NCBI RefSeq assembly: GCF_030013595.1
Contig: NZ_CP122770.1
Direction: 5' to 3' (one strand)
Source of the DNA: Escherichia coli
GTDB taxonomy: Bacteria; Pseudomonadota; Gammaproteobacteria; Enterobacterales; Enterobacteriaceae
DNA length: 64,000 nucleotides
The position numbers and the translations under genes were made by a program. The notes beneath the pieces are model-generated. The model worked only from the letters and a program-made list of their open reading frames with translations. It did no database searches and had not been told where the DNA came from. Positions 1 to 60,728 of the stretch are shown piece by piece. The number at the start of each line of letters is the position of its first letter. Positions within the stretch are counted from its first letter, which is position 1.

Positions 1-89
1 CGCCCCTGAATGGCAAATGAAACGGGAAATGTTGAGTCAGTGTTATACAACTAAATGGCGAGATATTCCCCTGGCCAGGCTGGGTTAGT

Positions 90-506
90 TCAGTCATCTC
101 CGAACATATTTTCAGCGTTTCTTCTGGTCTGGTCTTCACCGTCATTTCTCGACAGACTCTGCTCTGTAAGAGGAGTACTGCAATCCACAGACGTATGGAG
201 ACCAGATTGTTTTTCCAGTAATTCAAGCAATTTCTTTTCAACCGAAAAAGCACCTGGTATCACGCTGGAAATCACCTTATTAATATCATCCAGAGTCGTA
301 TTTTCTGTCAGTAACTCCGATATCAGCAAAGGAAGACGTTTATCTATAGCTGCAAACGCCGCACCAGTAACTAACATCGCGCGCATGAAACGTCCCCGCT
401 CCTTCAGTTTTTCATTTGCAATGAGCTCATCTGCTATCTTATCTCCTGTCCGTTCATCCGGGAAAAGTTCAAATGAGCAGCGTCTGGATTTATTTTCATC
501 ACTCAT
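90..506 (-). CDS. parR: ParR/StbB-like centromere-binding adaptor of a type II (ParMR) partition system
   Basis: 138-aa ORF directly downstream of the ParM-like gene with a short start/stop overlap (499-506); N-terminal region follows the ParR(R1)/StbB(R100) pattern (..DKI..ERGR..RA.L..G...ELLT..TT..DI..). Confidence 0.6.
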   Translation of the reverse strand: MSDENKSRRCSFELFPDERTGDKIADELIANEKLKERGRFMRAMLVTGAAFAAIDKRLPLLISELLTENTTLDDINKVISSVIPGAFSVEKKLLELLEKQSGLHTSVDCSTPLTEQSLSRNDGEDQTRRNAENMFGDD

Positions 507-1478
507 TAGTCACACCACCTTTCATTTTTATCATTCCCATGACTAAATCAAACTGCGGGGATGAGCTCAGATAAAAGCGCTCATCAGGAACCTTAGTCAG
601 GTTCTTCACAGCCTCGGCCACAATTTCAGCCCCACCACCAACACACATTACATGTGTATAGTCGGTGAAACGGCTGATGACATCATTAACTCGTTTAATA
701 AGCAACTTCTGCCGTTCATTGATAACATTAATGATAGACTCACGCTGTTCAGCATTATAAATGCGACGGGAAAGGTAGTCAGGTTCATTACGGTGCACAA
801 TGATATTGTCAGCCTGGAATGAGCTCACTCTTGTATTAGCATGTACAGCCATCTGTTCCTTAACCCCGGATGTAATCAGGGACACGCCGATATTTGGATC
901 ACACCAGGTTTTTGTAATCCCTGTCATTTTGCTACGAACATGCGACACATCAAGAGTTGTACCACCGAGATCTACGATCAAAAGGGATTCATCATCCTCA
1001 AGCCCCGCAAGAACACTGAAACCAGCGGGAATACTTTCAGGAAGAACGGAAACACTGCGAATAACAAATGCATCACTCCCCTGCACCCGTACTTCACGCA
1101 TCACATTTTTTTCTTTCTTTCAATGTTTTGCTTATTTTTCTGATTGTTGGCGTCAAGGTATTCAGAGATCGGCAATGTGACGATGACATCAACAGGCTGC
1201 GCTTTCAGGCCGGTCTGCTGTAGCGCATGCTGAATGGCCACAACATTCACATCACTGTACTGATAGCGTGTTTCAGTCGTTACGACAGCATCAGCACTTA
1301 ATGGATCAAATGAAAACTTCTCGCCGTCGATCTCGTAATTAGCCGGGGCAGCATCATCCAGTAAACTAAAAGACCATTCCGGTTTAAAGCTGTTAGGGCT
1401 GATTAACGTTTTCACGTCACCATCCTCCAACCAGGCAAGTTTAATGTTGGTAGAACCATCATCAATAAAGATTTTCAT
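499..1478 (-). pseudogene. parM: ParM/StbA actin-like segregation ATPase, reading frame broken by a -1 shift in an A7 homopolymer
   Basis: N-terminal ORF ([16 protein letters not shown]..., start 1478 after GGAG RBS) ends ..NIERKKKM* at 1101; the C-terminal ORF continues in another frame (REVRVQGSDAF..LPESIPAGF..DLGGTTLD..). Both halves match ParM of R1 in order; adding one A to the run at 1106-1112 restores a roughly 326-aa protein. Confidence 0.75.
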
Positions 1479-1559
1479 AACCAGTCTCCGTTGCTCATAA
1501 ACAAATAGAAAAAACAAACATGCTTCATACATGCAATGTATATTCAATTATAATGAAAA

Positions 1560-1720
1560 AACGGTCTTTCTGAAAGGACAAATGCAACATAAAAACACGA
1601 TAAATTGCATGTACATTGTACACACAACTTTAAGACCAGAGGAAATCATAGATACAAAAACATTATGAAGGTTATATGTGATACATAAATGCAATATAAA
1701 AACATCGTGGACATCATGGT
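1560..1720. promoter_or_regulatory. parC-like centromere/promoter region upstream of parM with direct and inverted AATGCAAYATAAAAACA repeats
   Basis: Repeats AAATGCAACATAAAAACACGA (about 1580) and AAATGCAATATAAAAACATCG (about 1688) plus inverted ATTGCAT copies, in the position where ParMR systems carry parC. Confidence 0.4.
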
Positions 1721-1891
1721 TCAGGTTAGGGGAAAAGGAATGAAATGGTGAAACTGAGAGGAAAGGAAAGCGGTGACGAATCATGTCACCATAAACAGAA
1801 AGATGTCTAATGGGGACTCTTTAGGTACGTGAAGAATCCCCATAACGCATTTAAAAGACACACATCAGATACCCTTAAGGTATCCGATAGT

Positions 1892-2200
1892 TTATTGACC
1901 TATTGCACCATCACGTTCAAGCTTCTCTCTTATAGCCTCAATAATATATGAGCTAAAATCCAGAGATGTTTTACTGGTCGCTTTAAGTTCCGCATGAGCT
2001 TCAAAATACGACAGCGGTATGGCCTTAAGATTCTTAGCCTTCGTCCTGGCAGCCACGGGACGACCTGAAACTTCCTCTGCACCTTCATTTGGCTGAGACG
2101 GGGCTGTTGCTGTTACGGCAGAAGAAGAAGTTTGTAATCTGGCAGAATCCACCAGGTTTTTCAGTTTTTCAGCCTGTGCACTAAATTTCGCTTTGCTCAT
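1892..2200 (-). CDS. ParG-like small ribbon-helix-helix centromere-binding protein (partner of the ParA-type ATPase)
   Basis: 102-aa ORF immediately downstream of the ParA-like gene; C-terminal KAIPLSYFEAHAELKA..IIEAIREKL resembles an RHH fold; layout matches type Ib parFG/parAB operons. Confidence 0.5.
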   Translation of the reverse strand: MSKAKFSAQAEKLKNLVDSARLQTSSSAVTATAPSQPNEGAEEVSGRPVAARTKAKNLKAIPLSYFEAHAELKATSKTSLDFSSYIIEAIREKLERDGAIGQ

Positions 2201-2286
2201 GAGATAACCCAGGATGTTTGTTAGATACTTAAAAGATATCCATTAAAAGCCCAAAGGATACTATATGGATACCCAATAGACACACC

Positions 2287-2931
2287 TTACTGTTTGTTAT
2301 TTTCAATCAGATGATTGATTTCTTCGATCAGGGCAATAACTTCCTTACCTCCTGCCGAATAGCGCCCATGAACAGACTCAGTGATTCCCATCCCAGTCTC
2401 AATGACATCCTCAAATTCTGCACGAGCAGAAATGCGGCTCTTCATCAGCTTCAGATGTTTGAACGATGGCAGGATTGCATCAAGCTTAGGGAATTTCTTC
2501 TTGTTAGGATTAACTTTACAGAGATACAGGTGAGCAGTTATATCGGTCCCCATGATAGAGCTGATTTCGTCCAGTACTCCATCAAAATGCATCAAACCAA
2601 TACGTTCAGTCAGGGAGTCTTTTGAAGGGACAATAACGCAGTCTGCAAAGGCAATCGCAGTACGGGTAAGATCTGAGTCAAATCCCCCACAGTCAATAAG
2701 TAACGTCTTATCGCTGTTCTTGTAGGGAGTCATAATTTCGATTAACTCATCCACTGTTTTGGGTACTTTCACGGAAATTTCTTTTCCTTCAGGTCTCAGC
2801 CCCAGAATGATAGAAAGCCCGGTATGAGTATCCAGATCAACTGTATCAGACTTCATTTCACCAACAATGTTTACGGATGAAGTTGTCTTACCCACACCAC
2901 CTTTGGGATGCGTATTAGCAATAACAGGCAT
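2287..2931 (-). CDS. parA: ParA/ParF-family partition ATPase (small type Ib Walker-type ATPase)
   Basis: Deviant Walker A box KGGVGKTT near the N-terminus (MPVIANTHPKGGVGKTT), about 214 aa, GGAG RBS 9 nt upstream of the ATG at 2931. Confidence 0.85.
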   Translation of the reverse strand: MPVIANTHPKGGVGKTTSSVNIVGEMKSDTVDLDTHTGLSIILGLRPEGKEISVKVPKTVDELIEIMTPYKNSDKTLLIDCGGFDSDLTRTAIAFADCVIVPSKDSLTERIGLMHFDGVLDEISSIMGTDITAHLYLCKVNPNKKKFPKLDAILPSFKHLKLMKSRISARAEFEDVIETGMGITESVHGRYSAGGKEVIALIEEINHLIENNKQ

Positions 2932-2983
2932 AGTGTATCTCCAGAATCCACATGTAATACCCATAAAGCCCCCATAAGACACC

Positions 2984-3100
2984 TTTCGGATATCCAAGAG
3001 GTACTCAATAGATGTTTTTTTACTCTATACCGGTCCTGCATGTCAACAGAATATGAAATACCGATAATATATCCATGAGATATCCGAAAGGGATTTAAAA
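2984..3100. promoter_or_regulatory. GGATAYC-type repeats upstream of the ParA-like operon (candidate type Ib centromere/operator)
   Basis: CGGATATCCAAG (2990), ATATATCCATGAGATATCCGAAAG (3068-3090); related copies at 2232-2275 (AAGATATCC, GGATACTATATGGATACC) and 1879 (GGTATCCGATAG). Confidence 0.35.
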
Positions 3101-3110
3101 AAGTCAGAGC

Positions 3111-3890
3111 TTATGGAATTCTTTTGAGCATAGACACCGCATCGGACTCAGGCATCGAAAACTGCACCCGGTGCCGTGCAGCCACATCCAGTGCAAACAC
3201 CTTCGTGTAGACCTCCGTTGAGCTGATGGACTTATGCCCCATCAGACTCTGCAGGACCTTCAGCGGTATACCGGCATACAGCATATGCATCGCATAGGAA
3301 TGGCGGAACGTATGTGGCGTGACCGGGACAGAGAACGTCACACCATCAGCGGCAGCGGCGGCAACCGCCTCCCCAATCCAGGTCCTGACCGTTCTGTCCG
3401 TCACTTCCCAGATCCGCGCTTTCTCTGTCCTGCCTGTTCGTTTATTACGCCGTTCCATGGGGATTTTCAGTGTGGCCACCATCGTCTGCAGCTGGCTGAC
3501 GTACCAGGCGTCGGAGAGCGGAACCAGCCGGTGAGTCTGCTGACCGGCGGGCATTCTTCCTGCCGTCCTGGCGGCTTTTTCGGTCCGCTGCTTCAGAGTG
3601 GCCAGCTGCACAAACGGATACGGAGGCGTGAGCGAAAAATCCCCCCGCGTCAGCGCCAGTGCTTCATTAATGCGCGCACCGGTGTTCCACAGTGTGGCCA
3701 GCAGCATCTTGCGGCGCAGATCCGGGACGTAATGGAGCAGGGCGCTCACTTCAGGGGCCAGCAGGTATTTTGGCAGTTCATCATGAACCATCGACATCTG
3801 GCGGAGTGCCAGCGCTGCCGGATAATCGATGGCAACAGGAAGCTGAGCGGCATCCCGGGCATGGTGGATCGGTGCCGGCAGGTGCTGCAT
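3111..3890 (-). CDS. resD: Tyrosine site-specific recombinase, ResD-like plasmid multimer resolvase (phage integrase family)
   Basis: C-terminal catalytic region HTFRHSYAMHML...LMGHKSISSTEVYT (R..HxxR..Y signature); likely start MQHLPAPIHH at 3890; the close resemblance to F-plasmid ResD is from memory. Confidence 0.75.
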   Translation of the reverse strand: MQHLPAPIHHARDAAQLPVAIDYPAALALRQMSMVHDELPKYLLAPEVSALLHYVPDLRRKMLLATLWNTGARINEALALTRGDFSLTPPYPFVQLATLKQRTEKAARTAGRMPAGQQTHRLVPLSDAWYVSQLQTMVATLKIPMERRNKRTGRTEKARIWEVTDRTVRTWIGEAVAAAAADGVTFSVPVTPHTFRHSYAMHMLYAGIPLKVLQSLMGHKSISSTEVYTKVFALDVAARHRVQFSMPESDAVSMLKRIP

Positions 3891-3891
3891 A

Positions 3892-4305
3892 TCAGTGTTC
3901 ACTCCACGGGGAAACGTCGGGCAGTTTTTCCACAACCCGGTACTTTCCCGGATAACGGAGCTGGTTACCGCCACGCGTCCAGACGGTGACAACAAAACCC
4001 CCGCCCTGGTTGTTTTCGGGGAGCAGGCGATCGCACTGCTCACTCAGCATGTGGATCACGAACGGCGCATCGCTGCCGTCTTCAAATACCAGTTCCAGCG
4101 CATCGCGGCCATCCAGCGTTCCCTTACTGATGATGACGTACTCAGCCCCCCGCATCTCCCTGAGTAAATGTTTTGCCGCATCCGGGACAAGCAGCCTGGC
4201 TGCGCCGGCATTCCAGCTTAGGTAGACATATCCGGCCTGCGCCTGTACAGACTGCCAGTAATCCGTTCCGGCGACAGCCTGACCTTCATTCTCAATAAAA
4301 AACAT
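3892..4305 (-). CDS. Hypothetical protein, translationally coupled upstream partner of the tyrosine recombinase
   Basis: 137-aa ORF starting MFFIENEGQAVAG with AAGGAG RBS; its stop (3892-3894) lies 1 nt before the recombinase ATG; no family recognised. Confidence 0.5.
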   Translation of the reverse strand: MFFIENEGQAVAGTDYWQSVQAQAGYVYLSWNAGAARLLVPDAAKHLLREMRGAEYVIISKGTLDGRDALELVFEDGSDAPFVIHMLSEQCDRLLPENNQGGGFVVTVWTRGGNQLRYPGKYRVVEKLPDVSPWSEH

Positions 4306-4388
4306 GGGTGACTCCTTTTTTCTTTTCCGGGCAGGGACGGTCATGCGATAACGTCATCCGTCATCACTGCCCTTACCGTCACGCCGTC

Positions 4389-4411
4389 TGATAACATCAT
4401 GCCGTTATCAT
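4389..4411. promoter_or_regulatory. Inverted repeat TGATAAC-N8-GTTATCA, candidate recombination (res/rfs-like) site or operator
   Basis: Perfect 7-bp arms with an 8-bp spacer in the intergenic region upstream of the recombinase operon; a further GATAAC copy follows at about 4421. Confidence 0.25.
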
Positions 4412-4746
4412 CATCACCATGATAACAAGCATCCATATAACCACGCCGTTAAATTACCGGAGAGCCGCTTCCGTCAGATCCGACTTTCCTGAATATCACA
4501 ACTTTCCGGAAGTGTATCACGCTGAGGAAATAATCATATCGCTGTTTTCCGCCCCTGCGCGGCGCATCACAGGTCAGGGAGATGACACAACATATAGTGT
4601 CATCAGCAGCTGAATCAGGCACCACATGTTGTGCTGACGGGAGGTGGCGTTGTGTGGGGGGAGTGGGAGATCCGTCTCCGCCGGAAACCGGATCTGCGCG
4701 GCGGGAAACGGGCAAACGATATGATAATTAAGCAACACACATAAAA

Positions 4747-4795
4747 TCATATCAGATATGATTTTCATCGTTAAAAATTAAACAATATCTGATAT
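4747..4795. promoter_or_regulatory. Pair of palindromic ATATCWGATAT operator-like sites upstream of the 4874 operon
   Basis: ATCATATCAGATATGAT (4747-4763) and AATATCTGATATT (4783-4795), with further TCAGATA half-sites up to 4865. Confidence 0.3.
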
Positions 4796-4873
4796 TATCA
4801 GAAATCAGGAGCACACAAATCATGCAGGATATGATTTTTACCTGTCAGAACATTATCAGATGGAGCGTGCAGG

Positions 4874-5131
4874 ATGGATCAGGAAATGACGTTTTCACTC
4901 AGCTATGAACAACTGACCCGGTTTGCGGAAAAACGCATCCGGGAATGCAATCTGGACAGCCAGGGCGCGATTTATCTCTGCGAGTCAGCCAAAGCCGGAG
5001 CCGTGCTGATCTTCTGGCATGAACTGGCCATAAATGGCTATGCCTCAATGAATGCCATAAAGAGACAGGAGCTCATTGACGCCGACTTTCAGCGCCTCAG
5101 AAACCTCATCTGGCCGGAGGATGACAGGTAA
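4874..5131 (+). CDS. Hypothetical 85-aa protein, first gene of a two-gene module
   Basis: ORF with GGAG RBS; its stop overlaps the start of the next gene (TAATGA at 5128-5133), suggesting translational coupling. Confidence 0.45.
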   Translation: MDQEMTFSLSYEQLTRFAEKRIRECNLDSQGAIYLCESAKAGAVLIFWHELAINGYASMNAIKRQELIDADFQRLRNLIWPEDDR

Positions 5132-5721
5132 TGACCCAGAGCCGCCGACCGTCGCCACTGCAGCGGAGAGTGCTGATTGTGCTGGCTGCCCTTGACGAAA
5201 AACGGCCGGGTCCCGTGCTGACGCGGGACCTGGAACGGGTGCTGGAGCGAAGCGGGGAAGCCCCGGTCTACGGGCCAAACCTGCGCGCCTCCTGCCGTCG
5301 TCTGGAGAATGCCGGCTGGCTGCGTACCCTGCGCGCTCCGAACCTGCAGCTGGCAGTGGAGCTGACGGACGCCGGCCGGGCCGTGGCACAGCCTCTGCTG
5401 CTGGCAGAACAGGACCGCCTCCGGGCAGAACAGCGTGCGGCAGAAGTCGTCGTACTGCCGCTGGTCCCGGCAGCAGGTCTGCCCGCAGACGGCACTTCTG
5501 CCACTGATCTGGCGGTGGAGCTGAACGGCATGACGTATCAGGCCTGCCGTGGGGATTTTGTGGTACGTCTCGACGGCAGCACCTGTCTGCAGTTATGGAA
5601 TAAAGAAGGCAGGGTGGTACGCCTGGAGGGCGATCCGCTGGAAGTGGCGCAGTGGCTGCAGGCCTGTCACGATGCCGGAATGGAGGTTCGTGTACAGGTT
5701 AATGAAAGCGTCACCCCGTAA
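5131..5721 (+). CDS. Hypothetical 196-aa protein with an N-terminal winged-helix-like DNA-binding region; markedly GC-rich
   Basis: N-terminal LQRRVLIVLAALDEKRPGPVLTRDLERVLERSG..RRLENAGWLRT resembles MarR/wHTH domains; GC content visibly higher than neighbouring genes. Confidence 0.5.
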   Translation: MTQSRRPSPLQRRVLIVLAALDEKRPGPVLTRDLERVLERSGEAPVYGPNLRASCRRLENAGWLRTLRAPNLQLAVELTDAGRAVAQPLLLAEQDRLRAEQRAAEVVVLPLVPAAGLPADGTSATDLAVELNGMTYQACRGDFVVRLDGSTCLQLWNKEGRVVRLEGDPLEVAQWLQACHDAGMEVRVQVNESVTP

Positions 5722-5738
5722 AAACATACCAGCACGGT

Positions 5739-5954
5739 TTACACGTTATCCCATGGTGGCAGCAGGTTAACTTTCCTGCGCCACCAGTGGAAAGAGGCCA
5801 TGAGCAGTCCGAACAAAAAACCACCCGTGATACTTATAATAATGGCCTCACCTGCCACCATTCCTGACGGCCCCCAGTAGATAAACCACATTGCACATCC
5901 CCAGGAAATGCCCCATAAGCTCCCCATCAACAGCGTGACCTGCCAGAACGGCAT
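5739..5954 (-). pseudogene. 3' portion of a small inner-membrane protein gene split by the IS66-family insertion
   Basis: 71-aa hydrophobic ORF abutting the IS end; after removing the IS and one copy of the target duplication, the minus-strand frame joins in phase with an upstream segment (..MDSKKMWRSNYA, ATG at 8759) to give a roughly 100-aa two-TM protein. Confidence 0.5.
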
Positions 5955-6048
5955 AAAGGGTAATGGCGGAAGCCGGATACCCAGCCGCCAGAGAATACGC
6001 AGAAGAGGAGGGGCATAAGTAAGCGGCTCGCCAGAACCGTATTGATAT

Positions 6049-7620
6049 TTACTGAGAGGTCAGATCAACTTTCCAGGGCAACAGATCGCGTACCCGGTTT
6101 GCCGGCCAATCCTGGATATGCTCAATGACGTAACGCAGCCATTTTTCTGGTTCCACATTGTTCAGACGGCATGTGCCGATCAGCGAGTACAACACCGCCG
6201 CATGTTCGCCACCGCTGTCGGAACCCGCGAAGAGCCAGTTTTTCCGGCCTACGGCCACTCCCCGTAAGGCGTTCTCTGCGATGTTGTTGTCGATTTCCAC
6301 CCAGCCATTACTGCAGTACACGTTCAGGGCCTCCCACTGTTTCAGCAGGTATGCGAACGCTTTTGCCGTATCCGAGTGACGCGACAGTGTTTTCATCTGT
6401 TCCTGTATCCAGTCATACAGTGACTGCATCAGTGGAGCCGCTCTGGCTTTTCTTGCTGCCAGACGCTGTTCTGCTGAACATCCCCGGACTTCTGCCTCGA
6501 TGACATACAGTTCACCGATACGCTGCAGGGCTTCCGTGGTGATGTCGGTTGGCACTCTTGCATGCACATCGTGGATTTTTCTCCGGGCATGGGCCATACA
6601 CGCGGCTTCCGTTATTCTGCCGGATTCGTATAACGCCCGGTAACCACCGTAAGCATCTGCCTGAAGCACACCGCTGTAACCGGCCAGGTGATTCTGTGGA
6701 TGGATACCTTTCCGGTCCGGGCTGTACGCGAACCAGACCGCCGGGGGCATCTGTGAACCGGCGTTACGGTCATCACGGACATAGACCCACAGCCGGGCAG
6801 TTCTTGTTTTACCACTGCCCGGCTCCTGGACCGGAACGGGGATATCATCCGCATGGACTTTACCGGGCATCAGCACATACTGGCGCAGCACGTCATACAG
6901 CGGCTCCAGCAGTTCAGCAACGGCACCGGTCCAGCGCCCCAGCGTGGCGCGGCTCAGTTCCACGCCCTGACGAAGGTATATTTCTGACTGGCGGTATAAC
7001 GGCAGATGGTCTGCATACTTCCCGGTGACGATATGAGCCAGAAGCCCCGCTCCGGCATAACTGCGTGCAATGGGTTTTGAAGGTACTGGTGCCTGCACGA
7101 TATGGTCGCACCGGCAACAGGCCAGTTTCGGACGTTGTGTTTCGATAACCTTAAAAGCGCTGCTGATAAGCTCCAGTTGCTCTGACACATCACACCCCAG
7201 AGGACTGAGGTCACCACCACAGGCCGGGCAGCATTCCTCTTCCGGCCGGATGACCCGGGTTTCACGGGGAAGTGAGGCCGGTAACGGCTTACGGGCTGAA
7301 GACTGGCGCAGGGCGGATGGCAGTACCGGGTCATATTGCTCATCCAGCGTTTCCGCCATTTCTTCCTGAAGTGCGCTGATTCGCTCCTGGGCTTCCTGTA
7401 TCTGCCGTTCGGTTTTAGCGCGAAGTTTTTCTGAGCTTTTACCGAACTGCATGCGCTGCAGTTTCGCAACCAGCGCCTTCAGCCGGTTGATTTCGGAAGC
7501 ATAAGCCGCCACCCGCTGTGAGAGCAGGCGGTTGTATTTCGCCATCTGGCGGATGGTGTCCTGTTGCGTCTGCAACAGTGCCCGCAGGCGGGCATTCTCA
7601 TGAGCAAGTGAGGTGTCCAT
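6049..7620 (-). CDS. tnpC: IS66-family transposase TnpC
   Basis: 523-aa protein with the zinc-finger-like CCPACGG..CCRCDH segment and conserved central and C-terminal regions typical of IS66 TnpC. Confidence 0.9.
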
Positions 7621-7639
7621 ATCCTCACTTTACAACGGG

Positions 7640-7987
7640 TTATATGCGGATGCCAGCGCGTTCCGTTCGTTTCGGGTGCTTCCAGTCGATGCCTTCGAGA
7701 AGCATGGACAACTGAGCCGGAGTAAGGTGAACCTTTCCATCGCGGGTGACCGGCCAGACGAAGCGGCCCCGCTCCAGGCGTTTGGTGAAGAGGCACAGTC
7801 CGTCACTGTCAGCCCACAGCACTTTTATCTGGTCACCCCGGCGTCCGCGGAAGATGAACAGATGCCCGGAGAACGGGTCATCCTTCAGGACGTTCTGAAC
7901 TTTTGAGGCCAGGCCGTTAAAGCCATTTCGCATATCGGTGATACCGGCAACCAGCCAGATACGCGAACCGGCAGGGAGAGATATCAT
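7640..7987 (-). CDS. tnpB: IS66-family accessory protein TnpB
   Basis: 115-aa ORF (MISLPAGSRIWLVAGITDMRNGFNGLA...) in the conserved middle position of IS66 elements. Confidence 0.85.
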   Translation of the reverse strand: MISLPAGSRIWLVAGITDMRNGFNGLASKVQNVLKDDPFSGHLFIFRGRRGDQIKVLWADSDGLCLFTKRLERGRFVWPVTRDGKVHLTPAQLSMLLEGIDWKHPKRTERAGIRI

Positions 7988-8637
7988 CAGTGGCTGCTCC
8001 CTTTCATTTCGCGGATAAGTGTCTGTAATAACGCCGGTGTCAGTTCACCTTTCAGCCTGAGAGTTCCGGCCGGCAGAACCAGCTCGCAGCACAGACTGTC
8101 TGGCAGTGTATTTATCTGTTCAGGTATCTGCACTGGTGCCGGGATTTTATTATCCGGCTCCGGAGTTAACGTCACGGGAAGTAGCGATGTTTCATGTTCG
8201 CCGGGCGGTTGCAGGCCACCGTTACGCCAGAGATGCCGCCAGTTAAAGAGCAGGTTATCGTTAATTCCATTCTCTCGAGCTATTTGTGCGACACAAGCAC
8301 CGGGTAAAAGAGTTTGCTGAACCAGTCTCCATTTAAACTCCGGTGAAAATCGGTTCCGGCGGGGTTTCTCTGCTTTCACAGGCTGAGTCACGGTCGGGGC
8401 TGAAGGGTATCGCCCCGGGAAAAGAGCCCGGGCCAGTTGCCCGCAGGAATATTCACCGGAAAGAGGCCAGTCAGTGAATACCTGGTGAAATCGCCTCACC
8501 AGAGAAAAAATGGCGGTTTTGCTGACACCGGTCTGCGCAGAAATGCGCGGGTACGACAGTGACTCGTCAAATCTCAGCTGTAGCACACGCAGGATCAATT
8601 CCGGATTGTCTGCCAGTACCGCTTTTCGTGCATTCAT
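7987..8637 (-). CDS. tnpA: IS66-family accessory protein TnpA (orf1)
   Basis: 216-aa ORF first in the IS66 operon; its stop overlaps the tnpB start; HTH-like N-terminus. Confidence 0.7.
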   Translation of the reverse strand: MNARKAVLADNPELILRVLQLRFDESLSYPRISAQTGVSKTAIFSLVRRFHQVFTDWPLSGEYSCGQLARALFPGRYPSAPTVTQPVKAEKPRRNRFSPEFKWRLVQQTLLPGACVAQIARENGINDNLLFNWRHLWRNGGLQPPGEHETSLLPVTLTPEPDNKIPAPVQIPEQINTLPDSLCCELVLPAGTLRLKGELTPALLQTLIREMKGSSH

Positions 8638-8926
8638 CTTAAATGTCCCTTTACTGCGAAAATGGACATTAGTATCGGAAACAGGAAAGGGAGGCGAAAG
8701 ACGGTTTAAATGAGACGGTTACGGGCATAATTGCTCCGCCACATCTTTTTGCTGTCCATCAGGGCAATGGCCCGGGCTTTTTTCTGCTCAAAGGTCACAG
8801 GAGCACCTCCGTTCCATGATGTAAACGTGACACAGCTTATTGTTATTGATTATTATTATCATGCTGTGGTTGTGTTGTCATGCATCAGTACACTGACAAA
8901 AGTGCAAAAGAAAGGAAAACAGGCAG

Positions 8927-22610: not shown

Positions 22611-22802
22611 ATGAAAATACTAATCAACAATATTAAAGACCCAAGCAGACTTCTGAATGCGACTAAAACGGGACATTCAGGAGTAATTCTCTCAATACCG
22701 GTATACATTACCAATCCAATTGCACATAAAATAATGAACCCTTACTTAAAGTCCGCATTAACTAACAAACACGTATATACGAACACGGAGTCTCCGTTAT
22801 GA
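22611..22802 (+). CDS. Hypothetical small protein whose stop overlaps the pilL start
   Basis: 63-aa ORF ending at the pilL ATG (22799). Confidence 0.3.
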   Translation: MKILINNIKDPSRLLNATKTGHSGVILSIPVYITNPIAHKIMNPYLKSALTNKHVYTNTESPL

Positions 22803-23866
22803 AAAAAAACTATCTGACACTTATACTGCCGTCATTATTGTCCGGCTGTGCCGGAATTTCCGGCGGCAATAACGTGGCACCATCAGATACGCCTGCTCTG
22901 GTTTTTGTTGACGGACAAATCAGTGAGAGTGCTGGCGTCCTGGCACTTACGCAACAACGACTTTCTCCACCTAAAATAACTCCGCCCCCGAGAGTCAGCG
23001 TGCCAGAGACAGTAAAAACAGCACAGCCAGTAAGCGAATCCCGACCGTTACCTTCACCAACAATAAGTCAGAATTTCTCCCGGTTAATCATTACAGGCAA
23101 GCCTGGTAGCACCTCTGTAACACTATCGCCGACGGCCCGTAACCGGACCGTCAGTCAGTGGATAAAAACATTACTACCGGAAGGATGGAAATTCAGACAA
23201 GAGAATGCAGCCACGCCCAAACTGAATACCAAACTGGTTTCATGGTCTGCCAATGATCAGTGGACCCGTTCTCTGAACCGGTTGCTGGAAGAACAACACC
23301 TCTGGGGCCATCTGGACTGGGATAATAAAACGTTGACCGTCACAACATCGGCTGCTGCACCGGCACAGGACACGGCAACCACTATCTCGCCAGCAGCCAT
23401 GGTAACCACATCCACTTCCCCGGAGTCTTCAACGACAGCAAATAGCCAGAACAAACCACGAAACCCATTCAGGGGAAACAGCGTATCTCCGTCTACGCCC
23501 GCAGCAATCCCGACTCCGACCGGCTCTACAGTCAAGTCTATCCCACTCATGACCGGGACACCTGTCAAACCGGTATCTCAGGGTAAAGAGTGGCGTGCGC
23601 CGGCAGGCACTACATTAAGGGAAAACATTATTAAGTGGGCAGAAGAAACAAAATGCGAAAGCATGGCATCAACGCACTGGATGGTCATATGGCCACTTTC
23701 TGTAACCGATTACCGTCTTGATGCGCCTTTGATGTTCCGGGGATCATTTGAATCAGCCATGGAGCAGGTATTTGAGTTATATCGGACTGCGCAAAAACCT
23801 TTATACGCACAGGCTTCTCGCATGCAGTGCATCATTACAGTTTCTGATACAAGGGATGGTCGCTAA
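22799..23866 (+). CDS. pilL: PilL, thin-pilus lipoprotein
   Basis: 355-aa protein with lipoprotein signal (LLSGCAG); first large gene of a conserved pilL-pilV block. Confidence 0.85.
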   Translation: MKKNYLTLILPSLLSGCAGISGGNNVAPSDTPALVFVDGQISESAGVLALTQQRLSPPKITPPPRVSVPETVKTAQPVSESRPLPSPTISQNFSRLIITGKPGSTSVTLSPTARNRTVSQWIKTLLPEGWKFRQENAATPKLNTKLVSWSANDQWTRSLNRLLEEQHLWGHLDWDNKTLTVTTSAAAPAQDTATTISPAAMVTTSTSPESSTTANSQNKPRNPFRGNSVSPSTPAAIPTPTGSTVKSIPLMTGTPVKPVSQGKEWRAPAGTTLRENIIKWAEETKCESMASTHWMVIWPLSVTDYRLDAPLMFRGSFESAMEQVFELYRTAQKPLYAQASRMQCIITVSDTRDGR

Positions 23867-33654: not shown

Positions 33655-35236
33655 TTGAGCGTTACACACGACGCAATACAACCTGTCTTATGCTCGTATT
33701 TGTACCATTTGCGTGAACCTGCTGGGCTCTCAACTACCTGGCAGTAGTGGGCATCCTCTGCGTTGCCCACTCTGGCAATGGCACAGAAGTCGAATTGCCC
33801 CAGATAACCTGTGGTGGAAAGCTGAGTAACTTTGAGTTTTCCACCTATTGTCCCCACGTACCGGATTGGCACGTAGGCCAGTGCCAATCCGGTCGGTGGT
33901 CAGGGGGTAATAAAATTAATTACTCAGCATGTAATTGGTACAAATCATCCGTAGCAATGAATCACTTTATCGGCGGTAAGAGTGGTGGTTCGATCTATTA
34001 CAAGCCGATTCAATGTCCGACTGGATACATTATGACTGGAACACGCATGTACGGTATTGGTGATGGTGTTGATGAGGAACATGTCGATGCCTACTGTTGC
34101 CCCTTTAATTAAGCTCCAGCACCAGGAAGATTGAGGCATGTGACTGATATGGTCCCACCAGACTCATAATTTCCCCAAGCATAATTACTCACATACCAAA
34201 CGTTGTTTTGGTCGGAATATACCTGTTGAAAACCACCAAAGGGTGAGCCATTCAGGTAAGTCCATGAGCAATATGCATGGACCCCGAGCCTTAAATTACG
34301 AGTGTTTTTAGCTATGTTGTAGGTCTGCGTTGTGAATTGAATTTTAGGAGCGCCCCAGGTACCGGATTGGCACGTAGGCCAGCAGCGCCAGCAATTTAAT
34401 CTCAGTTCTGACACGCGACGACATAACTACATTTTCCGGTTAAATCAGCTCTAAATGTCCCTTTATGGAAATTGTATTCATCATAAAAACCACATTTAAC
34501 AATTCGATTTGCATCATAAGTTGCAACTGATCCTGCAAAGTAATTCGGCTTCCAACCTTGAGGGTTTTCTGCATTGCTCACACTCCATGAGCACTGACTG
34601 GCAGAAAACCCTGTTGGCAGCGGTATTTGCTGACCATTTGCTATACGACCAGTTATCACCGTACTACCAGAATTGCTTTTACGCCAAGTACCGGATTGGC
34701 ACTGGCCTACGTGCCAATCCGGTACCTGGAGAAAGGTAGGATCTGGTGAGCTTCAAATTGCTACAGCACAGGCCACAGGTTGGCGCTTTCCTGGAGCAAC
34801 AGCTACCTGTCCAACTGGAAAACGTGTTACAGGTGGCGGCGGAATATGCACCTCACGAACTGGTTACATATGGCTTACCAGGTCATTCCCATCAGCCAAT
34901 AACTCATGGTCGGCTGCGTGCGATACAACCGAAGATCAGAATGGTTCAATAACTGTATATGCCATTTGCCAATAAGCTATTTCAAGCAAGTAATCTTCAT
35001 AAAGTAGGACGAATACTGTGTGTAGTTTTTGGCTTGCCAAGTCATCTCGCCGTTAGAGTCAGGCATGTCAATAGGAACGACTTCTGTTTCTGCCATTTCA
35101 CGCCCGTCAATACGATAGGTGTTAATACACAGTTTAAACCTCCCTAAGACCTGTGTGTTTTTGGGATATAACGTAAATGTTTTTATATTCGTCCATATCG
35201 ACGCTGATGATGATTTCCAGGTACCGGATTGGCACG
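33300..35236. other. Shufflon: multiple-inversion region with seven 19-bp sfx repeats carrying alternative pilV 3' segments
   Basis: 19-bp repeats GTGCCAATCCGGTNNNTGG at 33300(+), 33854(-), 33880(+), 34356(-), 34684(-), 34711(+), 35218(-); every ORF in the region begins in-frame at a repeat (CQSG(T/R)W...) and so represents an alternative PilV C-terminus. Confidence 0.9.
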
Positions 35237-43103: not shown

Positions 43104-46100
43104 ATGCCGTCTGTATCCCGCTACCGCACCTGGCTTGCCGTGCCTGCAGATGAAATAGAAGATCTCAAAAAAGCACATCCCCCGATGAACGGGCACACGC
43201 CCGTCATCTGGGACAAGGAGCACAAACTCTGGTTCGCCCGCCCGGGGGCGGACCTGTCCAGGCTGGACCGCTGGCTGCCCCGGCCACAGGACGTCTCCAT
43301 GAACGGCAGTGATCCGGTCACCGAGTTTGCCCAGGTTCTGGAGAATGCCGGACTGGTTCTGAAAGAACTGCCGGTCATGGACGGGAAAATCCACCGTGTC
43401 CCGACCGCCGATGACAAAAAAGGACAAAAAAGTGGCGCATATCGCGGATTCCTGGACGGCAGACCTGCCGGCTGGTACAGGGATTATCGCAGCGCGGATA
43501 ATTCGCCGATCACCTGGACCTTCTCCGGCGGAGAACAGACAGATCCCCGCGCAAGACTCCACCTGAAAGCGCATTCAATGCAACGCAGGGAGGACGCGGA
43601 GCGGGAACTGAAAGCACAGTACAACCGACAGGCCGCGTATGCCCGCCGCTATATCAACAAATGGCCGCAGGCCACAGCACATGAATACCTGACCCGGAAA
43701 GGCATTCAGGCTGCACCGGGGGTGCGGGTAAACAACAAAAATGAACTGGTTATTCCCTTCAGTAACCGTAACGGCGCGATACGCTCTTACCAGCGTATTC
43801 CGGTCACCGGGGGGAAAGATGCCCGCATCCTGATAGATTCGGAGAAAACCGGTAACTGGTTTGCGCTGGGCACACCGCGCAACGGTCAGCCGGTACTGTT
43901 TGCCGAGGGCTATGCCACTGCGGCCTCCCTGCACGAAGCCACGGGCCTTCCGGTACTGATGACGGTGGATGGAGGCAACATGATTGCCGTTGCCGAAAAT
44001 GCCCGGCAAAAGTGGACGCAAAGCCCCTTTATCTTCTGTGCCGACAACGATCATGCAATCCGGGTTAACAAAGGTATCGTCAGTGCAACAAAAGCCGCAG
44101 AACTGACAGGAGGATCGGTCATCTTTCCTGCGTTCACCGATGCCGAAAAAGCGCAGGGGCTGACCGATTTCAATGACCTGGACGCAAGCCGGGGACGGGC
44201 CGCTTTTCAGCATGTCATCAACGCCCAGTTAGAACACATCGGGGTTTCCACCCCCAACAGTAACACCCCGGAAATGCGCGAGGCACTGGTGATAGGCAAC
44301 CTCGTTTTTACACCGGTCCACAGTGAGGAAAAAACCATGACTCCGACAGAATATCCTGAAACATCACCCGATACAGGGCACAGCCATGACCAGGGACCTT
44401 CTCTGCCGTCCGCCACACAGCAGGAACAACCAGCTGCTTCCAGCAGTAACATTGCTGATGAAACACAGTCATTTACCAGTCACGCCACTGAAAATAACGG
44501 CAAAGATGAGCGGCACGCTGATAACGTTCAGGCGCAAACGGAAAGCTCTGTAGTTCAGGACTCCCCTGCAGAATCACCGGCGTCCCCGGAAAGTACAACG
44601 GCGTCTGCCCCTGATGAACCCGCTCATCCGGCGGAACCTCCGGAAAAAGTTGTCTCGGTGGCCACAGATAAAGACTGGCGTGAATTTGAAGCTGAACTGT
44701 CACAACCGGAAAAAAACGAGTCACAACAGGAATCCGGCACTTCACCTGAAATACCGGCCCCTGCTGCCACCACCGCATCCCCTGAAGACAGTCCCTCATC
44801 TGAAACCATGAATGAATCAGCCGAGCCATCACCTTCCCCTGATGCAGTCAAAGAGGAAATGACCGTGATGACGGAACCTGATGACAAACAAAGCACCGGA
44901 ATATCCCCGGATACTCCCCGGGAAGAGGCGGTCAACCATGTAACTGAAGACATTCCCCTTCAGCCAGAGCCGTTCCTTCCTGAGTCAGATGGCCCCGAAG
45001 AATACGAAAACTACAGCGCATATCAGGAGCTGATGAACAATGAAAATCCTGAGCATCTGCAGGAAAACAGTGATATGCCGTCGCAACCGGACACAGGCCA
45101 CGTTCAGGCTGATGAGTCAGAACTTCAGGCCACAACAGATACAGTAGAACCGGCTGTCCGGGATGCCCCCACTCCACAGCAACCTGTTCAGAGCACATCA
45201 TCTTCTGATAATACTTCATCGTTTCTCGACAAAGCGCGTGGCTTTTTTACGCGTAAAAAAACGGATTCACAGGCGCATGAGAACAGTGATCCCACACCCT
45301 CACCGGAAACCACGACGACCACACCGGCACCTGACAGTATTGTCTACGCCCCGGAACGCCCTGATGCACCGATATCGCTCAATCTGGACGAAATCATTAA
45401 ATCGCTGGAAGGTGAAGAACGAGCAGACAGAACCGTCCTGTACAAACTGGATGGCAAACCTGCCTTCATTGACCGGGTAAACCGGCTGGAAATGGTCAAC
45501 GGTGCCAGCAATGACGATCGCAGTGTTCTGGCTGCACTTGCTGTGGCCACTGATTTTTATGGTGGTGTCATTGAGCTGACGGGCAGTGATGCCTTTAAGC
45601 AAAAAGCGATGCAGTTGATCATCGAGCACAACATCAAAGTGCGCATGAAATTCCCGGATCAGCGAGCGGCGCTCGAAAAATTACGCAAGGAAATGGCTGT
45701 CGGTAAAGATACTGTTGTCACCCATAAGCCAACACCGGAACTTAACCGGAATACCCCTGAACAACCAGCAGTCCCAGACCCTGTTCAGGAAAAAGAAGCC
45801 ACACAATCCCCGGCGTCCCCAGTAGCCCCTGAAGCATCAACCGTCAGCACCGTCCCTGCATCATCACCGGCTGAACCTGGCAAAACGGCAGATGCGGCAC
45901 AAGGTGAAGAACCACCAGGAAAACTTCGCCCGGGAGAGAGCGTGACTGCCGTACTGCACAATTTTGGTCGTGCTGAATATGCACCCGGCAAAGGAGAGAG
46001 TTTCTTTGTTGAGCTTAAAAACCGCAGTGGCAGCAAACTCTACTGGGGGGAACAACTGGAAAGTCTGGTCAAAAACCATCAGAAAGGTGACGTGGTGACA

Positions 46101-50211: not shown

Positions 50212-50915
50212 TGAAACCTGAAACAGAAATAGATGAAACCGGCAGCTTCGGTGAACCCGAAGAGAAACCCGCCCCCTTCTGGAAACGTTCCGTCTGGGGG
50301 ATATCTGTAGCAACATGGGGGCTATGTGCAGTCGTGTTGCTCGCAGCCATATGGTATCTGTTCCTGAGAGCGCCATCGGAAACAGGCATGCCTCCGTTTA
50401 ATGATGCGGATGCTGGCGTACAGACCTGGCAAACCACACAAGAATCATCACCTTCCGTTCAGTCCACTGATACCATGACTGTCCGGACAGGAGAAGATAT
50501 GAGCCAGCTTGCCCGGGATGTAAAAACAGAGCTGGATAACCGCGATGAAAAAATTCAGGCAACACTGAATATGCTTCACGACAGCATTAACAAGCTGGGC
50601 GAAGCTATAAAAAAGGATGAAGAATACGCACAGGAAACGCGCCGTCAGCTGGATGATATCCGGAGCCACCTGAACGGAATGATGACACAGAAAAGCGTCA
50701 CCGAATCCTCTTCCACACCGCATCCAGCAAAGAAAAAAACGTCGTCTGTACTTAACGGAATGAAAATCATGTCGATGGAAACTGGCATGGCCTGGATTCG
50801 CTGGCAGGGTAGTACCTGGGCTGTCAGAGAAGGTCAGACTCTGGGCAATGTGGTGATCCAGCGGATTGATCCGACGACCCGGACCATCATCACCAGTGCA
50901 GGGACGTTACGCTGA
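50211..50915 (+). CDS. traP: TraP (DotF-like)
   Basis: 234 aa with one TM segment and coiled-coil region; coupled start/stop. Confidence 0.7.
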   Translation: MKPETEIDETGSFGEPEEKPAPFWKRSVWGISVATWGLCAVVLLAAIWYLFLRAPSETGMPPFNDADAGVQTWQTTQESSPSVQSTDTMTVRTGEDMSQLARDVKTELDNRDEKIQATLNMLHDSINKLGEAIKKDEEYAQETRRQLDDIRSHLNGMMTQKSVTESSSTPHPAKKKTSSVLNGMKIMSMETGMAWIRWQGSTWAVREGQTLGNVVIQRIDPTTRTIITSAGTLR

Positions 50916-58490: not shown

Positions 58491-60728
58491 ATGTCGCCAT
58501 CCCCCTTAATTAAATCCTGTGTGGCCTTTGCCCATACGCAATTCTATTCCGGAGTTACTGTGAAAATTTTACTTCGCGCACTCTGTGCAGGCCTTGCTAT
58601 ATCCTCACTGCCGGCAATGGCTTCAGTGACCTATCAGGATATTGTGTCTGCCGCCACCAATCCTGACGATCTGTCCCGCCAGGCGCTGGTCACGATATTC
58701 GGTGATGTGGTCACCAATCCACTGTCAACCAGCGACCCCACCCTGATCGGAAGCATGTTCTGGGTGTTCAACAATATCATTGCCGTACTTGCTATCGTCT
58801 GGTGTATCTTCATTAGTATCCGCCATGTTGTGCGTTCGGGGCATCAGGGACAGGTATTCAGCGTCGGGCGCGATATTGTCGGCATACTGAGTTTCGTCGC
58901 AGGCTTTCTGATGATCGTTCCTACCGGAAATGGCTGGAGTCTCGCTCAGCTCATTATGTTATGGGGCGCATCGATAATGGGGGTTGGGTCCGCCAATGTG
59001 ATGGTGCAAGTTGCCGCTGATAATATCGCAAATGGTTATTCAATGACTGTACAGCCAGTTCAGGCATCCACACGAACAGCTGCGCGTGGCATTTTTGAAA
59101 TGGAACTATGTAAGTATGCGGTTAACGCAGGACTAAATGATTTTAATCAGACCGCCAAATCCTCGACTTCACTGATGACAGAATCAGCTAAAACCGCCAG
59201 TGGTAATTACACTGTCACGGTATCCAATGGCAGCGGTATCTGTGGTACAGCCAGCCTGTCAGTAGAAGGAAACGGAACAACAGATCAGTCGACGATTGGA
59301 AAATTCTTTAATCCCTTCAGTAAAAACGAGTACAGCGGTGTTATCTCAGCACAACGTGCAGCCATGGATAATATGATTAGCGACATGGACAACGCTGCCA
59401 GTGAGTTTGTGACAACATTTCTGGAAAAAAGAAATTCTGGCAACGGAACACTGCCGGATATCGAGACACGAATTCAGAAAGCAGCCGACGAATACGAACG
59501 TGCTGTGCAAAAATCGCTACCCACTGATAACGGAGAGCAATCCAGAAAAGAGGCTCTTAAATCTTATCTCACAACCTACGGGTGGGTAACGCTTGGCGCA
59601 TGGTATCAGACCTTTGCCACTGCTAACCAGCGTCTGGCAGAGCTGGCTGACAGAGCTCCAGCTGTAACTTCAATGTCATCACTGGGAGAAGTTGGTGATA
59701 CTGACTTATTCAGTGCGGTCATGAGTGCCTATAGGACGCAACTGCAGAATTCCTCCTATACGCCACCGCTGGGCACAGTAGTATCATCCAGTGAACAACG
59801 CATGGCAAATGCACAAGATCCGAAATCTGCCTTGTCTGAAATTATGGGCCCCCTTGTTAGTCTCACTAACAGGATTGCAACGGAAACAAGTGGCACAGGC
59901 ACAACCAGTGCTCAAATTAATCCTCTGATAAAAATGAAAAATATCGGAGATATAACAATGGTAAGTGCAGAAGGAATCTGGACTATATATACAACGGCCA
60001 GAGTTGTCGTTGCCGGTGGCAAAGATTCAATTCTTGTAAAATTCTTTAACTCACTAACAGGTGCCGCTTCGATGCTTACCGCGCTGTTTGAAGCACTTGC
60101 ACCACCTGTTTATTTTCTTTTGTTCCTGATGTTCTGTGCTGGATTTTCCTTATCAATTTACCTGCCATTCATTCCGTTTATTTTCTGGATGACAGGCATC
60201 GGGAACTGGATAGTCAGCGTATTAATAGGATGTACCGCCGGGCCGCTGTGGGCTGCAACACATCTCGGGACATCAGAAGACAGAGGAAGTCGGGCAGCCT
60301 ACGGTTATATATACTTAATTGATAGTATGATAAGGCCGCCCATCATGGTCTTTGGTTTTTTCTTTGCTTCTGTAGCCATCATCGCCGTAGGCACAATACT
60401 GAATGCATTATTTGGCGCTGCCCTGGTTAACGTACAGTTCAATTCGCTGACCGGTATTTTCAGTCTTGCTGGTTTCTTGCTGATATACGCCAGAATTTGT
60501 ACAACCACTGTAGCTGCCATATTTGCCCTTCAGGCCTACCTACCTGATCATGTTATTAACTTCCTAGGGGGACGTGATGGAGCCAACACGCTTGGCAGCA
60601 TGGCAAATTCTGTTAAAGAAATATTTATTGGAGGAAGTCGCAATATCCGACATACTCCTGGAATGAAAACAGATCGTCTTAAAGATAATACAAAAGGAAG
60701 TGACGACAAGGACGGAATAAAAGGATAA
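58491..60728 (+). CDS. traY: TraY (DotA-like) large polytopic inner-membrane protein
   Basis: 745 aa with signal sequence, large periplasmic domain and multiple C-terminal TM helices. Confidence 0.8.
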   Translation: MSPSPLIKSCVAFAHTQFYSGVTVKILLRALCAGLAISSLPAMASVTYQDIVSAATNPDDLSRQALVTIFGDVVTNPLSTSDPTLIGSMFWVFNNIIAVLAIVWCIFISIRHVVRSGHQGQVFSVGRDIVGILSFVAGFLMIVPTGNGWSLAQLIMLWGASIMGVGSANVMVQVAADNIANGYSMTVQPVQASTRTAARGIFEMELCKYAVNAGLNDFNQTAKSSTSLMTESAKTASGNYTVTVSNGSGICGTASLSVEGNGTTDQSTIGKFFNPFSKNEYSGVISAQRAAMDNMISDMDNAASEFVTTFLEKRNSGNGTLPDIETRIQKAADEYERAVQKSLPTDNGEQSRKEALKSYLTTYGWVTLGAWYQTFATANQRLAELADRAPAVTSMSSLGEVGDTDLFSAVMSAYRTQLQNSSYTPPLGTVVSSSEQRMANAQDPKSALSEIMGPLVSLTNRIATETSGTGTTSAQINPLIKMKNIGDITMVSAEGIWTIYTTARVVVAGGKDSILVKFFNSLTGAASMLTALFEALAPPVYFLLFLMFCAGFSLSIYLPFIPFIFWMTGIGNWIVSVLIGCTAGPLWAATHLGTSEDRGSRAAYGYIYLIDSMIRPPIMVFGFFFASVAIIAVGTILNALFGAALVNVQFNSLTGIFSLAGFLLIYARICTTTVAAIFALQAYLPDHVINFLGGRDGANTLGSMANSVKEIFIGGSRNIRHTPGMKTDRLKDNTKGSDDKDGIKG

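Follow-up and report, generated by a model that had tools for sequence, protein, structure and literature searches.

The parM gene of the plasmid considered here is deposited in two pieces, and this raises the question of whether the plasmid has lost its actin-like partition ATPase or whether the assembly has lost a base. The window is a 64,000-nucleotide stretch of an IncI1-type conjugative plasmid that carries colicin Ia, pil, shufflon, and tra/trb genes. Its minus strand encodes, in order, a ParA-family ATPase, a 102-aa partner, a repeat-rich spacer, parM, and a parR-like gene. The parM gene (499–1478, minus strand, 980 nt) encodes a type II partition ATPase and is frameshifted at a homopolymer located at 1106–1112. 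This run is T7 on the plus strand (context CACATTTTTTTCTTTCTTTC) and A7 on the coding strand, where it corresponds to gene nucleotides 367–373 and reads GAAAGAAAGAAAAAAATGTGATG; it is eight bases long in relatives. A sequence-only reading had held that the parM frame is broken at this A7 run, leaving two open reading frames offset by one base, and this description is confirmed, as a 125-codon frame is followed by a 200-codon frame in the −1 register. That reading had left three causes side by side: a sequencing or assembly error, a genuine mutation, and a slippage-prone site. The evidence described below favors the first of these, as A8 prevails among related plasmids and A7 tracks error-prone long-read assemblies.

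Translation of parM from the ATG at 1478 proceeds through GAA AGA AAG AAA AAA ATG TGA and stops after 125 codons. The resulting N-terminal fragment (1101–1478, minus strand) contains ParM residues 1–124 followed by a Met, with the TGA at 1103–1101. The last 200 codons of parM lie in the −1 frame and form a C-terminal fragment (499–1101, minus strand; ParM residues 127–326) that begins with the ATG at 1101–1099 and ends with the stop at 499–501. The ATG and the upstream TGA overlap as TGATG, the gene calls for the two fragments (3001–3378 and 3378–3980) share 1 nt, and the pair omits only residues 125 and 126 of ParM. Addition of one A to the run produces a 326-aa open reading frame whose product is identical to WP_000688514.1 and whose DNA differs from the intact gene of relatives at 0 of 981 positions, indicating that there has been no secondary decay in parM. 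Of the other run lengths tried in silico, neither A6 nor A9 restores the frame. Residues 1–317 of the repaired protein align to residues 1–316 of the R1 ParM structures (4a62, 1mwk; E = 6e-104), so that the homology to R1 ParM extends over the full length of the actin fold and, on the strength of the alignment, the repaired gene is clearly a member of the ParM family. The expectation that eight A residues would yield a continuous frame colinear with ParM of R1 is thus borne out.

The distribution of conserved domains and motifs over the two fragments is informative. The Pfam domains StbA_N and ParM_N are found on the parM fragments, and because ParM/StbA domains occur on both of them the split is not a chance pattern. 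The nucleotide-binding motifs of ParM (DxGxxN, DxGGxT, GGG) do not occur together in a single polypeptide as deposited, but do so after addition of the one A. The phosphate 1 motif (DDGSTN) is located on the 125-aa fragment, while the phosphate 2 motif (DLGGTT) and the adenosine motif (GGGA) are located on the 200-aa fragment. As the 125-aa fragment is missing the phosphate 2 and adenosine motifs, neither fragment possesses a complete actin-fold ATPase site. The identical lesion in a second plasmid record, NZ_CP122766.1, is annotated by RefSeq/PGAP as a "frameshifted" ParM pseudogene. Searches against NCBIfam returned no model above its cutoff for ParM, ParR, or the ParB-like protein.

The surroundings of parM resemble the ParMRC system of R1. 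As in R1, a repeat region lies upstream of parM and a small partner gene overlaps the parM stop downstream, R1 ParM and the repaired 326-aa protein can be aligned from end to end, and the Pfam families StbA_N, ParM_N, and Plasmid_stab_B are represented among the genes of the window. The partner is an intact parR-like gene of 138 aa (90–506, minus strand; WP_001278818.1; Plasmid_stab_B, PF10784) whose start overlaps the end of parM. The region upstream of parM (1479–1720) is a candidate for parC and the promoter, with direct repeats at 1580–1599 and 1687–1706 and inverted repeats at 1528–1541 and 1600–1613, all within the repeat-bearing segment 1520–1706. In contrast to R1, parM is split into 125-aa and 200-aa reading frames as deposited, and the locus is situated on an IncI1-type backbone beside a second, ParA-type module. 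If the run is repaired, the gene would encode a normal R1-type ParM, an actin-fold ATPase, which together with parC-bound ParR would push plasmid copies apart. A literature search found no paper in which a parMR system of this type has been tested.

The nearest relatives of the window provide a direct comparison for the homopolymer. Sister plasmids in four other assemblies carry T8 and show 0 mismatches over window positions 1–6018, which includes the whole par region, and 0–2 mismatches over ~13.3 kb; for two further sisters, 21.7 kb of alignment contains 1 mismatch and no gap. The accessions and contig-name style of these sisters suggest that they are short-read assemblies. The only 100% match to the window over a 1.1-kb segment is NZ_CP122766.1, which diverges from the window after ~4060. 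All that sets this parM apart from the intact gene is one base missing from a long homopolymer. Four differences separate the window from its sisters: an IS66-family insertion, shufflon rearrangements, the A8 to A7 change in parM, and a C5 to C4 change. No further homopolymer indels were found in ~55 kb of comparisons between the window and its relatives, ~104 of 105 longer runs in the window agree with the relatives, no indels at Dcm sites were found in these comparisons, and the single substitution seen relative to the sisters lies outside any methylation motif.

The C5 to C4 change is a second contraction specific to the window. The C4 run at 33852–33855 (feature on the minus strand) is C5 in five comparators, among them near-identical sister contigs and three relatives; the sisters that share C5 differ from the window by 0–2 substitutions over ~35 kb. 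On the minus strand the corresponding G5 to G4 change truncates a C-terminal exon of the PilV shufflon, which then ends in GTWGQ*. The C4 state is rare (~20–30 of 1,190 PLSDB records) and occurs together with the parM A7 in 2 of 20 PLSDB records, which is above expectation (P ~ 0.03). This second homopolymer contraction is more easily explained by sequencing technology. The only remaining homopolymer of eight in the window, an A8 at 22802–22809, is equally long in a relative; thus not every A8 run has been shortened in the assembly from which the window derives.

Run length in related plasmids, a comparison proposed in the sequence-only reading, was determined with an 81-nt probe spanning the run that tells A7 from A8. 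In PLSDB, 1008 records carry A8 and 34 carry A7, and among complete E. coli genomes A7 is found in 12 records versus 632 others with A8. In a large protein collection the exact truncated product accounts for 578 blocks, compared to 57,458 for the intact protein, and the exact 125-aa product is found on 463 contigs. Overall, parM is in frame (A8) in ~97–99% of relatives. A gene decoded by programmed frameshifting or transcriptional slippage would be expected to retain its out-of-frame arrangement; the out-of-frame state is not conserved at this locus, and consequently the site is not a programmed frameshift. Results from haplotype comparisons indicate that A7 occurs on more than 10 haplotypes differing from the window by 2–72 mismatches, and that a single exact 6-kb haplotype includes 4 A7 records and at least 55 A8 records. 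The A7 state is sporadic and polyphyletic, is tied to error-prone data, and never marks a clade.

The origin of the A7 records is uneven. A single project on porcine ETEC strains accounts for all 12 of those from complete E. coli genomes; its workflow combined ONT R9.4.1 flow cells and a rapid kit with Bonito 0.4.0, Trycycler, and medaka and did not include polishing with short reads (PMC10151945). Of the complete-genome records, at least 12 of 13 from this project carry A7, versus 0 of 631 elsewhere (Fisher P ~ 1e-24), and the latter count corresponds to an upper 95% bound of 0.5%. Within the project A7 spans at least five flanking haplotypes, with differing alleles of UmuC, the integrase, and the ParB-like protein, and one of the isolates is from another country; one plasmid of the project has A8. 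The project contributes 16 of the 30 A7 matches from PLSDB that were listed, and apparently ~20 of 34 overall. The recurrence of A7 is thus independent of phylogeny and follows the sequencing technology.

The A7 records from outside the ETEC project point in a similar direction. Most of the other long A7 contigs contain 4–25 extra indels per 6–14 kb, many of them at CCWGG sites or in short homopolymer runs, and on most of them many neighboring genes are split. In the large collection 66% of the A7 blocks are shorter than 5 kb, compared to 16% for the intact gene and 9% for a rare neighboring allele. It was considered that this fragmentation might merely reflect rarity, as the longest contig per block is reported; however, the shift persists against the rare neighboring allele, and this explanation was rejected. 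Sparse annotation, with neighboring genes missing or altered, hints at frameshifts in NZ_CP051282 and CP061240, although this sign is unquantified. An inherited A7 lineage represented by LT985286, MF152729, and ETEC1732 was also considered and rejected, since at least 55 A8 records share exactly that haplotype and MF152729 carries 1-bp deletions of its own. Over 16 kb the only differences between NZ_LT985286.1 and NZ_MF152729.1, which were deposited by separate submitters, are four 1-bp deletions in MF152729; three of these fall in C/G runs, and two of the affected genes are absent from the MF152729 annotation table. Finally, some A7 records are locally clean (AP027247.1, CP092313.1, CP020494.1, LT985286.1, and one 76-kb Logan contig), and given these records genuine A7 alleles may exist.

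Taken together, these results lead us to favor an under-called homopolymer in the source assembly, that is, an assembly or base-calling artefact, with a probability of roughly 0.8; in the plasmid itself parM is probably intact, with a run of A8. This reading is preferred because real A7 alleles are rare (<~0.5%), at least one widely used long-read workflow miscalls the run at a high rate, the sisters carry A8, and the window contains a second suspect run. The lesion, its uniqueness among near-identical sisters, and its tie to error-prone assemblies elsewhere are each matters of direct observation. In relatives only two runs in 64 kb reach eight or more, and the A8 of intact parM, as one of them, is consequently the likeliest place for a long-read consensus to lose a base. 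In its purine-rich context (AAAGAAAGAAAAAAAA), consensus calling from long reads would drop one A from the eight, and we infer that the source assembly is long-read based and unpolished at the parM run. The pattern matches that of under-calls known from ONT R9.4.1 with medaka, in which one base is lost from the longest A-run in 12 of 13 parM copies on at least five backbones; other homopolymer or Dcm-site indels accompany A7 in most of the other A7 records, and PGAP flags the gene as "frameshifted". Unlike an unpolished assembly, the window has no dense pattern of errors and only one further suspect run (C4 at 33852–33855). However, the ONT-only plasmid of ETEC1739 is accurate over nearly all of its 89 kb and yet contains two homopolymer frameshifts (parM A8 to A7 and traY A6 to A5), so that the cleanness of the window is no argument against an artefact at the parM run. 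At traY (59420–59425) the window itself has A6 and an intact gene, while the ONT-only record NZ_CP122766.1 has A5; there the gene (87818..1056) is annotated as DotA/TraY "frameshifted", which makes traY the second homopolymer frameshift seen in the ETEC project.

The main alternative is that replication slippage in the A8 run has very recently deleted 1 bp in the isolate itself and inactivated ParM, the plasmid persisting through its ParA-type module, its toxin–antitoxin genes, and conjugation. This is unlikely, although several features of the window suit it. The window is otherwise very clean, its alignment to sister contigs running for 21.7 kb without a gap, as would be expected of an accurate assembly of a true mutant; A8 tracts are real hot spots for replication slippage, and no site on the plasmid is more prone to slippage than the one in parM. 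The lineage has been altered recently in another respect, as the IS66 insertion is missing from the sisters, and the A7 state is also found in some clean assemblies elsewhere. The two contig entries that share the IS66 junction would favor a real allele if they were sequenced independently. The ParA/partner module 400 bp from parM is intact and flanked by repeats, and some hosts tolerate large deletions that remove parM, at a cost in stability (bioRxiv 10.64898/2026.02.20.706986). Against a genuine deletion stand its very low base rate (none of the 631 complete E. coli records that lie outside the ONT-only project carries A7), the failure of A7 to mark a clade anywhere, the A8 runs of the nearest sisters, and the second rare homopolymer contraction in the window, which is easier to understand as an effect of sequencing technology. 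Moreover, the compensating role of the ParA module is putative, its ATPase being only 24% identical to the validated ParA of pESBL. Should A7 be real, polarity from a stop 600 nt ahead of parR could reduce the expression of ParR, and compensation for the loss of parM by the adjacent ParA module, itself a putative activity, is plausible.

A third possibility treats the run as a functional slippage site, either as a phase-variable switch of ParM between A8 and A7 or as an A7 state that still supplies ParM activity, and this is very improbable. Activity from A7 might arise in three ways: ribosomes could shift by −1 on A_AAA_AAA and so produce exactly the wild-type protein, transcription could slip, or translation could reinitiate at TGATG and the two fragments reassemble. 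Some details of the site are suggestive, as the stop and start overlap in TGATG, only residues 125–126 are omitted between the fragments, and a −1 shift after the second AAA codon reads AAT GTG ATG, the wild-type sequence; the A7 state also recurs across many backbones. However, the wild-type state is in frame and for that reason requires no recoding, and A7 makes up ~1% or less of the sequences overall, mostly in error-prone assemblies and in 0 of 631 complete-genome records outside the ONT-only project. The A7 site showed no identifiable stimulatory element, and the restart codon is preceded by only a weak purine-rich stretch. Efficient transcriptional slippage in E. coli needs runs of ~9 or more, and A7 is shorter. 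It is very improbable that A7 is a real allele and anything other than null, whether by a putative reassembly of fragments 1–125 and 127–326 or by −1 slippage restoring a little wild-type ParM. In that case the tract, by changing between A8 and A7, would reversibly dim one of the two partition systems of IncI1-type plasmids.

The second partition-like module beside parM merits separate consideration. Both of its genes are intact (1892–2931, minus strand): a ParA-family ATPase of 214 aa (2287–2931, minus strand; WP_001144036.1) and its 102-aa partner (1892–2200, minus strand; WP_000030199.1). The ATPase scores 53.9 bits against the NCBIfam model ParA_partition, below the cutoff of 180. Candidate parS arrays made up of GATATCC/GGTATCC-type repeats are located upstream of the ATPase gene (2974–3090), with a further copy downstream at 1864–1890. 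Repeats of this type at 1864–1890, 2229–2280, 2974–3011, and 3053–3090 flank the operon in an arrangement like that of type Ib parS. The module shares several features with the type Ib ParAB/parS locus of pESBL and R64 (Poidevin et al. 2020, PMC7602700), including a small Walker-type ParA, a partner of ~100 aa, repeats on both sides, and the same backbone position beside the impCAB/umuDC genes. In contrast, the two ATPases share just 24% identity (E = 2e-10), and the ATPase of the window is not a close relative of the validated pESBL/R64 type Ib ParA. Because of this low identity, the ParA/102-aa module appears, from the sequences compared, to be an uncharacterised partition system. A further difference is that pESBL has no parMR. 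The pESBL Tn-seq data (PMC7602700) were considered as proof of an active neighboring ParAB and a dispensable parM and were set aside, since with pESBL lacking parMR and the ParA proteins 24% identical these data show neither that the ParA module of the window is active nor that parM is dispensable. A second study, by TraDIS, concerns yet another type of parAB (PMC10286972). The 3-kb par module as a whole is common and is at least 80% covered in 676 complete E. coli records.

Whichever of these readings is correct, the finding at parM is ordinary: the lesion is of a familiar kind, being a homopolymer artefact or, at most, a pseudogene of the usual sort, and RefSeq/PGAP already flags it. Its practical significance under the preferred reading of an under-called run lies in quality control: assemblies built from long reads alone repeatedly show false frameshifts at the parM A8 tract of IncI1-type plasmids. 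Consequently, "ParM pseudogenes" encountered in plasmid surveys should not be counted as loss of partition unless supported by reads. A real deletion would be an ordinary loss of function in one of two partition modules, and would offer a natural test of whether the neighboring ParA module alone maintains such plasmids.

Comparison of the window with its relatives also revealed several features away from the par region. The IS66-family element (6019–8722; 2,704 bp) contains open reading frames of 523, 115, and 216 aa and is bordered by an 8-bp target duplication (GGGCATAA). The sisters lack this element, which truncates a DUF6404 gene adjoining the colicin Ia region. An exact look-up of the protein encoded across the IS66 junction returned this plasmid alone, in two contig entries. 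The window is identical over 15,721 of 15,721 bases to JAUANJ010000005.1 of GCA_030346525.1. The start of the window corresponds to position 50,393 of this 93,524-bp contig, and the end of the contig corresponds to window position 43132, 29 nt into a transfer gene with an LPD7 domain. The window reads through the end of JAUANJ010000005.1, and is thus a wrapped circular copy or a second contig entry of the same plasmid. In the shufflon, the sfx cores ACCGGATTGGCAC and GTGCCAATCCGGT are inverted and 8 bp apart (33856–33893). Apparent indels at 33873–33881 and 34703–34710 proved to be spurious, as the 8-bp segment between the inverted sfx cores is flipped in relatives.
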